Assembly: GCF_003334335.1 (NCBI RefSeq)
Contig: NZ_QOWQ01000007.1
Strand: one strand, 5' to 3'
DNA: 64,000 nt
From: Escherichia coli
Lineage (GTDB): Bacteria; Pseudomonadota; Gammaproteobacteria; Enterobacterales; Enterobacteriaceae
Below, in pieces: positions 16,547 through 16,585 of this stretch; the first letter of the stretch is position 1, and each line of letters begins with the position of its first letter. The notes under the pieces were generated by a model. The model was not told where the DNA came from. It saw nothing but the letters and a program-made list of their open reading frames with translations, and did not search any database. The position numbers were made by a program, and so were the translations under genes.

Positions 16547-16585
16547 CAGTGTATTGGTAGCTAAAAAGCCAGGGGCGGTAGCGTG
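16547..16585 (+). promoter_or_regulatory. JUMPstart element with ops site (GGCGGTAGCGTG at 16574-16585) in the wza leader; RfaH-dependent antitermination signal
   Basis: 39-bp 'cagtgtattggtagctaaaaagccaggggcggtagcgtg'; ops consensus GGCGGTAGnnT present; near-identical element at 41086-41124. Confidence 0.85.

Follow-up and report, generated by a model that had tools for sequence, protein, structure and literature searches.

A canonical JUMPstart/ops element in the wza leader very probably places the Escherichia coli colanic acid operon under RfaH-dependent elongation

We analyzed a stretch of 64,000 nucleotides of E. coli DNA (hereafter the window, numbered from its first letter), which shows 99–100% identity to E. 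coli chromosomes and contains the wza–wcaM colanic acid operon, on which an RfaH-modified RNA polymerase presumably acts. The operon occupies 16764–39759 on the + strand, and its genes follow each other in the order wza, wzb, wzc, wcaA–F, gmd, fcl, gmm, wcaI, cpsB, cpsG, wcaJ, wzxC and wcaK–M, all in the same direction, with the order and sizes of the ORFs as in the K-12 and PEC301 annotations. From the ATG of wza at 16764 (an ORF of 379 aa) to the stop codon of wcaM at 39759 it measures 22,996 bp, in agreement with the length of roughly 23 kb given in an earlier sequence-only reading of the same DNA. The divergent gene yegH lies upstream on the – strand with its K-12-annotated ATG at 16105, and with this start the yegH–wza spacer comprises 658 bp (16106–16763). 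The sequence-only reading had arrived at about 590 bp, a figure that has to be corrected and that stems from the longest mechanical yegH ORF, which reaches a TTG at 16171. At the very beginning of the window, two SIB antitoxin RNAs were found on the – strand (320–462 and 649–797, with 142 and 150 bits, respectively), where a type I toxin-antitoxin region, ibs/sib, adjoins mdtA.

Three REP/BIME blocks had been claimed for the operon, and all of them were located in untranslated gaps: between wzc and wcaA (about 20530–20635), between cpsB and cpsG (about 31010–31115) and between wzxC and wcaK (about 35605–35800). The last of these includes a match to the Rfam family naRNA4 at 35668–35738 (79.7 bits). 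Attenuation, either by Rho or associated with hairpins, could occur at these three gaps, and the block between wzc and wcaA would be one possible attenuation point. The gap between wzc and wcaA (20518–20694) spans 177 bp in the window versus 92 bp in K-12 MG1655, which indicates that its REP/BIME content varies between strains. Besides that, an algC RNA motif of Rfam was detected at 31148–31197 on the + strand (78.2 bits versus a threshold of 33.8), just after the BIME and directly upstream of the ATG of the phosphomannomutase gene cpsG at 31202 in the cps operon.

Within the yegH–wza spacer, a JUMPstart element of 39 nt lies at 16547–16585 on the + strand (exact sequence CAGTGTATTGGTAGCTAAAAAGCCAGGGGCGGTAGCGTG), and both the sequence and the coordinates reported earlier turned out to be exact. 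An Rfam search of the whole window matched the JUMPstart family RF01707 end-to-end to this same span, covering model positions 1–38 of 38 and scoring 57.3 bits versus a gathering score of 35, so that the element in the wza leader passes the curated cut-off of the family (E = 1.6e-10 when the whole window was searched and 1.8e-12 when the search was confined to the spacer). The pattern search placed the ops 12-mer GGCGGTAGCGTG at the 3' end of the JUMPstart (16574–16585, +), where it matches the ops consensus perfectly on the non-template (coding) strand. The hexamer GGTAGC in the core of ops (16577–16582) is already present further upstream, at 16556–16561 (+) as read from the sequence, and this upstream copy contributes to a 5-bp hairpin (UUGGU/GCCAG) that the Rfam consensus structure line assigns to the wza copy. 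With regard to the neighboring genes, the element is situated in the leader of a polysaccharide cluster and has the orientation of that cluster, with 178 nt separating ops from wza. Counted from the A of the wza ATG, the 5' end of ops lies 190 nt and its 3' end 179 nt upstream, which bears out the distance of about 180 nt stated in the sequence-only reading.

The spacer is AT-rich, and a chance match was considered as one alternative explanation. It is excluded by the shuffled controls, since the 39-mer was absent from all 100 shuffles (0/100) even when up to 3 mismatches were allowed, as well as by the Rfam E-value and by the positional conservation of the element in three genera. The ops consensus GGCGGTAGNNTG was found in 2 copies in the 64 kb (at 16574 and 41113), both on the + strand and both in operon leaders, compared with a chance mean of 0.12 per window; 0/100 dinucleotide-preserving shuffles reached 2 matches. 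The JUMPstart/ops at 16547–16585 is genuine and far beyond chance.

The element is strongly retained within the species. A comparison with the wza leader of K-12, which had been named as a check on the reading, gave an identity of 39/39 for the JUMPstart and of 99% for the spacer of MG1655. This K-12 spacer also measures 658 bp and is flanked by the same genes, yegH and wza; it differs from that of the window by 15 substitutions, 0 of which fall in the JUMPstart, and by nothing else of substance. Across the complete E. coli genomes, the spacer was present at a coverage of at least 80% in 4819/5426, nearly all with 95–100% identity, and the exact 39-mer in 4141/5426, with variants of approximately 1 base in 437 more. 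In one genome (NZ_CP024134.1, strain 14EC017), an IS1A element is inserted in the spacer near its yegH end (420–1117 of the extracted locus L109), upstream of the RcsAB-like box, and the JUMPstart is intact.

In addition, we scanned about 100,000 species genomes with the pattern GGTAGC-N6-GCCAGGGGCGGTAGCGTG and classified the resulting loci by local tblastn. This pattern fixes 24/39 bases of the JUMPstart, so that conservation at these bases is given by construction and only 16544–16555 and 16562–16567 provide free evidence. The scan returned 106 loci, essentially all from Enterobacterales. Twelve of them, found in Escherichia, in Salmonella enterica subsp. arizonae and diarizonae and in several Citrobacter, show the divergent arrangement yegH–JUMPstart–wza; most of the remaining loci have the JUMPstart after galF, which is the position of O-antigen or group 1 capsule clusters. 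For the footprint alignment, 11 yegH–wza spacers were aligned with that of the window and the mean inter-genus identity was calculated. This identity amounts to 35% at 16201–16260 and 39% at 16420–16543, the stretch adjoining the JUMPstart, and to 95% at 16544–16555, the part free of the search pattern. In these alignments, the JUMPstart stands out as an island of conservation that follows a variable stretch, at the same yegH–wza place in Salmonella and Citrobacter. Four contigs with an enterobacterial JUMPstart carry the labels Arthrobacter sp. (L011), Erysipelotrichia MAG (L019), Peptococcaceae MAG (L034) and Chryseobacterium sp. (L078); the galF fragment of L011 is 100% identical to that of the window and the galF of L078 shows 86%, and all four are probably cases of contamination or mis-binning in public assemblies.

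The same alignment highlights the region upstream of the JUMPstart. A block at 16264–16281 reaches 90% inter-genus identity versus 35–49% in its flanks, and it contains a site resembling an RcsAB box (TAAGAAATATCGCA, 16267–16280, +), in which all strongly conserved (upper-case) positions of the published consensus TaAGaa/tatTCctA match and which lies upstream of the presumed cps promoter. The degenerate RcsAB core motif occurs 6 times in the window versus 12 times expected, a count that is not significant, and a search with the literal consensus TAAGAATATTCCTA and up to 3 mismatches missed the site at 16267–16280. Based on its conservation across genera and on the literature, TAAGAAATATCGCA may represent an RcsAB box; a single promoter with an RcsAB box upstream of wza was described by Stout 1996, as cited in PMC2478693. 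Downstream of it, conserved blocks with an inter-genus identity of 73–78% extend over 16303–16419 on the + strand. They comprise TTGTCAA at 16303, TCCTAAAA at 16321, CTTAATAT to TCTTAAAA at 16345–16362 with a candidate –10 hexamer TAATAT at 16347–16352, TGTTACCTTGCCTG at 16381–16394 and GTTAGCTGYAACA at 16402–16414. The conserved TAATAT would predict that transcription begins around 16355–16365. The RcsAB-like and promoter-like conserved blocks are located 190–320 nt upstream. A consensus scan revealed no good sigma70 promoter upstream of the JUMPstart, the sole site being a weak one at 16431–16458, and a promoter that depends on an activator would be expected to score this poorly. The conserved cps promoter region carries, at 16306–16455 on the – strand, a ‘hypothetical protein’ of 49 aa (WP_162829205.1) in the RefSeq/PGAP annotation of many E. 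coli genomes, which is probably a spurious gene call.

Between ops and wza, the leader (16586–16763, +) shows an inter-genus identity of 78–83%. The scan for terminator-like sites detected no intrinsic terminator in this leader, and an intrinsic terminator there was accordingly discarded as the target that RfaH would override. No Shine-Dalgarno sequence is evident in the bases before the wza ATG (ccaaagtgataaataaacaATG), a point in which wcaA and gmd differ. A poor Shine-Dalgarno is known for operons under RfaH control and is noted for waaQ and rfb in PMC6358824, and the weak Shine-Dalgarno of wza fits this property. The leader furthermore contains a conserved palindrome, CAGTTAA...TTAACTG, at 16662–16687 (+), which overlaps an 8-codon ORF encoding MPVKFVFN from the ATG at 16659 to the TAA at 16685 (+). 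Frame and stop of this small ORF are kept in 12/12 leaders from Escherichia, Salmonella and Citrobacter, with TAA changed to TAG in E69, and RNAalifold on these 12 leaders gave no covariation support for the palindrome region at 16659–16687. To our knowledge, neither the palindrome nor the mini-ORF at 16659–16687 has a published description. It is an improbable but conceivable scenario that the 178-nt leader holds a second, undescribed control element of this kind. In that case, 16659–16687 would be a mini-ORF for ribosome loading or a binding site for protein or RNA that works together with RfaH, and it would couple translation on a wza message that is devoid of a Shine-Dalgarno.

A further alternative concerns the level at which the JUMPstart acts. 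Rfam classifies the family among the cis-regulatory RNAs and draws a hairpin for it, and the outer pair of this hairpin is U-G in the wza copy and C-G in the rfb copy, a U-G wobble being tolerated in RNA. A RfaH-interacting RNA, RirA, has moreover been described for the waaQ leader, and the transcribed wza leader could, like this sRNA, mainly act as RNA by binding or titrating RfaH or another factor. Folding analysis speaks against this: the hairpin of the isolated 39-mer, folded as DNA, was no better than shuffles (z = 0.11) and was rejected, the fold z-score of the leader RNA was –0.34, and the covariation term of RNAalifold on the 12 leaders was +0.51, which means no covariation. The established RfaH mechanism, in which ops is read as non-template DNA, also counts against a role mainly as RNA. 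We consider such a role highly improbable, although an RNA role and a DNA role of the JUMPstart do not exclude each other, and we know of no RirA-like RNA product for wza. In the spacer, no Rfam family other than JUMPstart was found with permissive filters even at E ≤ 1, and a structured leader RNA or riboswitch was discarded on this ground together with the z-score and the lack of covariation.

The element is already known: its sequence is that of the K-12 element described in 1996, Rfam has a curated family for it, and RfaH ChIP data have been published for the uropathogenic strain CFT073. The wca operon is attributed ‘a JUMPStart-RfaH antitermination mechanism’ in PMC9976346 (with reference to Stout 1996 J Bacteriol 178:4273 and to Hobbs & Reeves 1994), and PMC3101779 describes the production of colanic acid as ‘an RfaH-regulated process’. 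In CFT073, the wza ops is the same 12-mer GGCGGTAGCGTG, placed 190 nt before wza in the leader and on the non-template strand (PMC9765446, Data set S2), which is the strand required for RfaH recruitment (PMC9765446). According to the ChIP-seq data of this study, wza–wcaM is among eight leader ops loci with an RfaH signal in an hns stpA double mutant, in which a sigma70 peak is also seen upstream of wza (PMC9765446). CFT073 is a different strain from that of the window, and RfaH binding was shown there only in the hns stpA mutant. Wild-type CFT073 grown in rich medium gave no RNAP signal at the wza locus, which is silenced by H-NS and is referred to as a ‘cryptic’ RfaH locus (PMC9765446). This silence implies that the action of RfaH has been seen only when initiation is unlocked.

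One could argue from the silent wild-type locus, at which RfaH was undetected, that the JUMPstart is genuine and nevertheless has little effect on colanic acid. RcsAB-dependent initiation together with H-NS would then determine nearly all of the output, and ops would have been kept by descent from an ancestor common to group 1 capsule and O-antigen leaders. In line with this, PMC3673037 calls the RfaH requirement for cps presumed; the same paper also states that the genes beyond wzc need RfaH. We regard this explanation as quite unlikely, since the element is invariant in Escherichia, Salmonella and Citrobacter right beside a stretch of 39% identity, its exact 39-mer is retained in 4141 E. coli genomes, and RfaH loads at the wza ops once initiation is allowed (PMC9765446). 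In addition, polarity in an rfaH mutant, and thus dependent on RfaH, is attributed to Navasa et al. 2014 (FEBS Lett 588:922; E. coli K92) in PMC12791035. The preferred interpretation, namely a canonical JUMPstart/ops that belongs to the E. coli colanic acid operon and confers RfaH-dependent elongation through it, is supported by the RF01707 score above the cut-off, the perfect non-template ops in the leader of a 23-kb polysaccharide operon, the identity to K-12 and the literature, and on this combination of sequence and published evidence we consider it very probable.

RfaH-dependent elongation through the operon would comprise several steps. As described in the literature, transcription would initiate at the RcsAB-activated and H-NS-silenced promoter upstream of the JUMPstart. 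By analogy with the established RfaH mechanism, RNA polymerase would pause at ops and thereby expose single-stranded non-template GGCGGTAGCGTG; RfaH would recognise the exposed strand, bind the polymerase and refold. Judging from ChIP and cited polarity in other strains, we infer that RfaH would travel with the polymerase, exclude NusG and suppress pausing as well as Rho-dependent termination. It may also help to load the ribosome on a wza message with a poor Shine-Dalgarno. The modified polymerase would be expected, again from ChIP and the cited polarity, to cross the 23 kb including the three untranslated REP/BIME gaps and to reach wcaM. E. coli carries rfaH, which is located outside the window, and RfaH is said to promote cps expression according to the Navasa 2014 study. 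In rfaH mutants, the truncated LPS activates Rcs, so that initiation at the cps promoter rises. Absolute levels of distal cps reporters in an rfaH mutant would therefore be confounded by this Rcs activation, and the distal-to-proximal ratio is the informative measure. The cps/wca operon would be marked by the element as a case of standard two-level control, with RcsAB-dependent initiation followed by RfaH-dependent elongation, and this could explain the completion of a 23-kb transcript that contains three untranslated REP/BIME gaps. The assignment is of value for annotation only and leaves the current understanding unchanged.

Other JUMPstart/ops systems share much of this organization. In the waaQ leader with its described RNA product RirA, in hlyCABD and in kps region 3, ops is likewise found in a long 5' leader, precedes a long operon whose products are exposed at the cell surface or secreted, and acts via RfaH; hly and kps carry the ops variants GGCGGTAGCATG and GGCGGTAGCATA, whereas wza has GGCGGTAGCGTG. 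The cps leader of the group 1 capsule (K30) likewise has a JUMPstart before a wza-wzb-wzc export module, and RfaH is invoked there for read-through past wzc. In contrast, the K30 JUMPstart comes after galF and before wzi, and the wza copy comes after yegH; group 1 cps of K30 is also not known to have RcsAB-dependent control of the kind seen in the colanic acid operon. The window itself harbors a second JUMPstart/ops at 41086–41124 on the + strand (Rfam, 60 bits), between galF (39922–40827) and the first O-antigen ORF (41347). The 3' 21 nt of this galF-side copy (AAGCCAGGGGCGGTAGCGTG plus the next T and C) are identical to those of the wza copy, as is the GGTAGC repeat, but five substitutions are present in its 5' half and the flanks are unrelated. 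Its leader, called shorter in our comparison, has 222 nt between ops and the first ORF and serves an operon that is constitutively expressed. Further downstream, at 47082–51069 (+), the O-antigen cluster contains a second gmd/fcl/gmm/manC set, whose proteins are 80%, 73%, 50% and 59% identical, respectively, to the copies of the cps operon.
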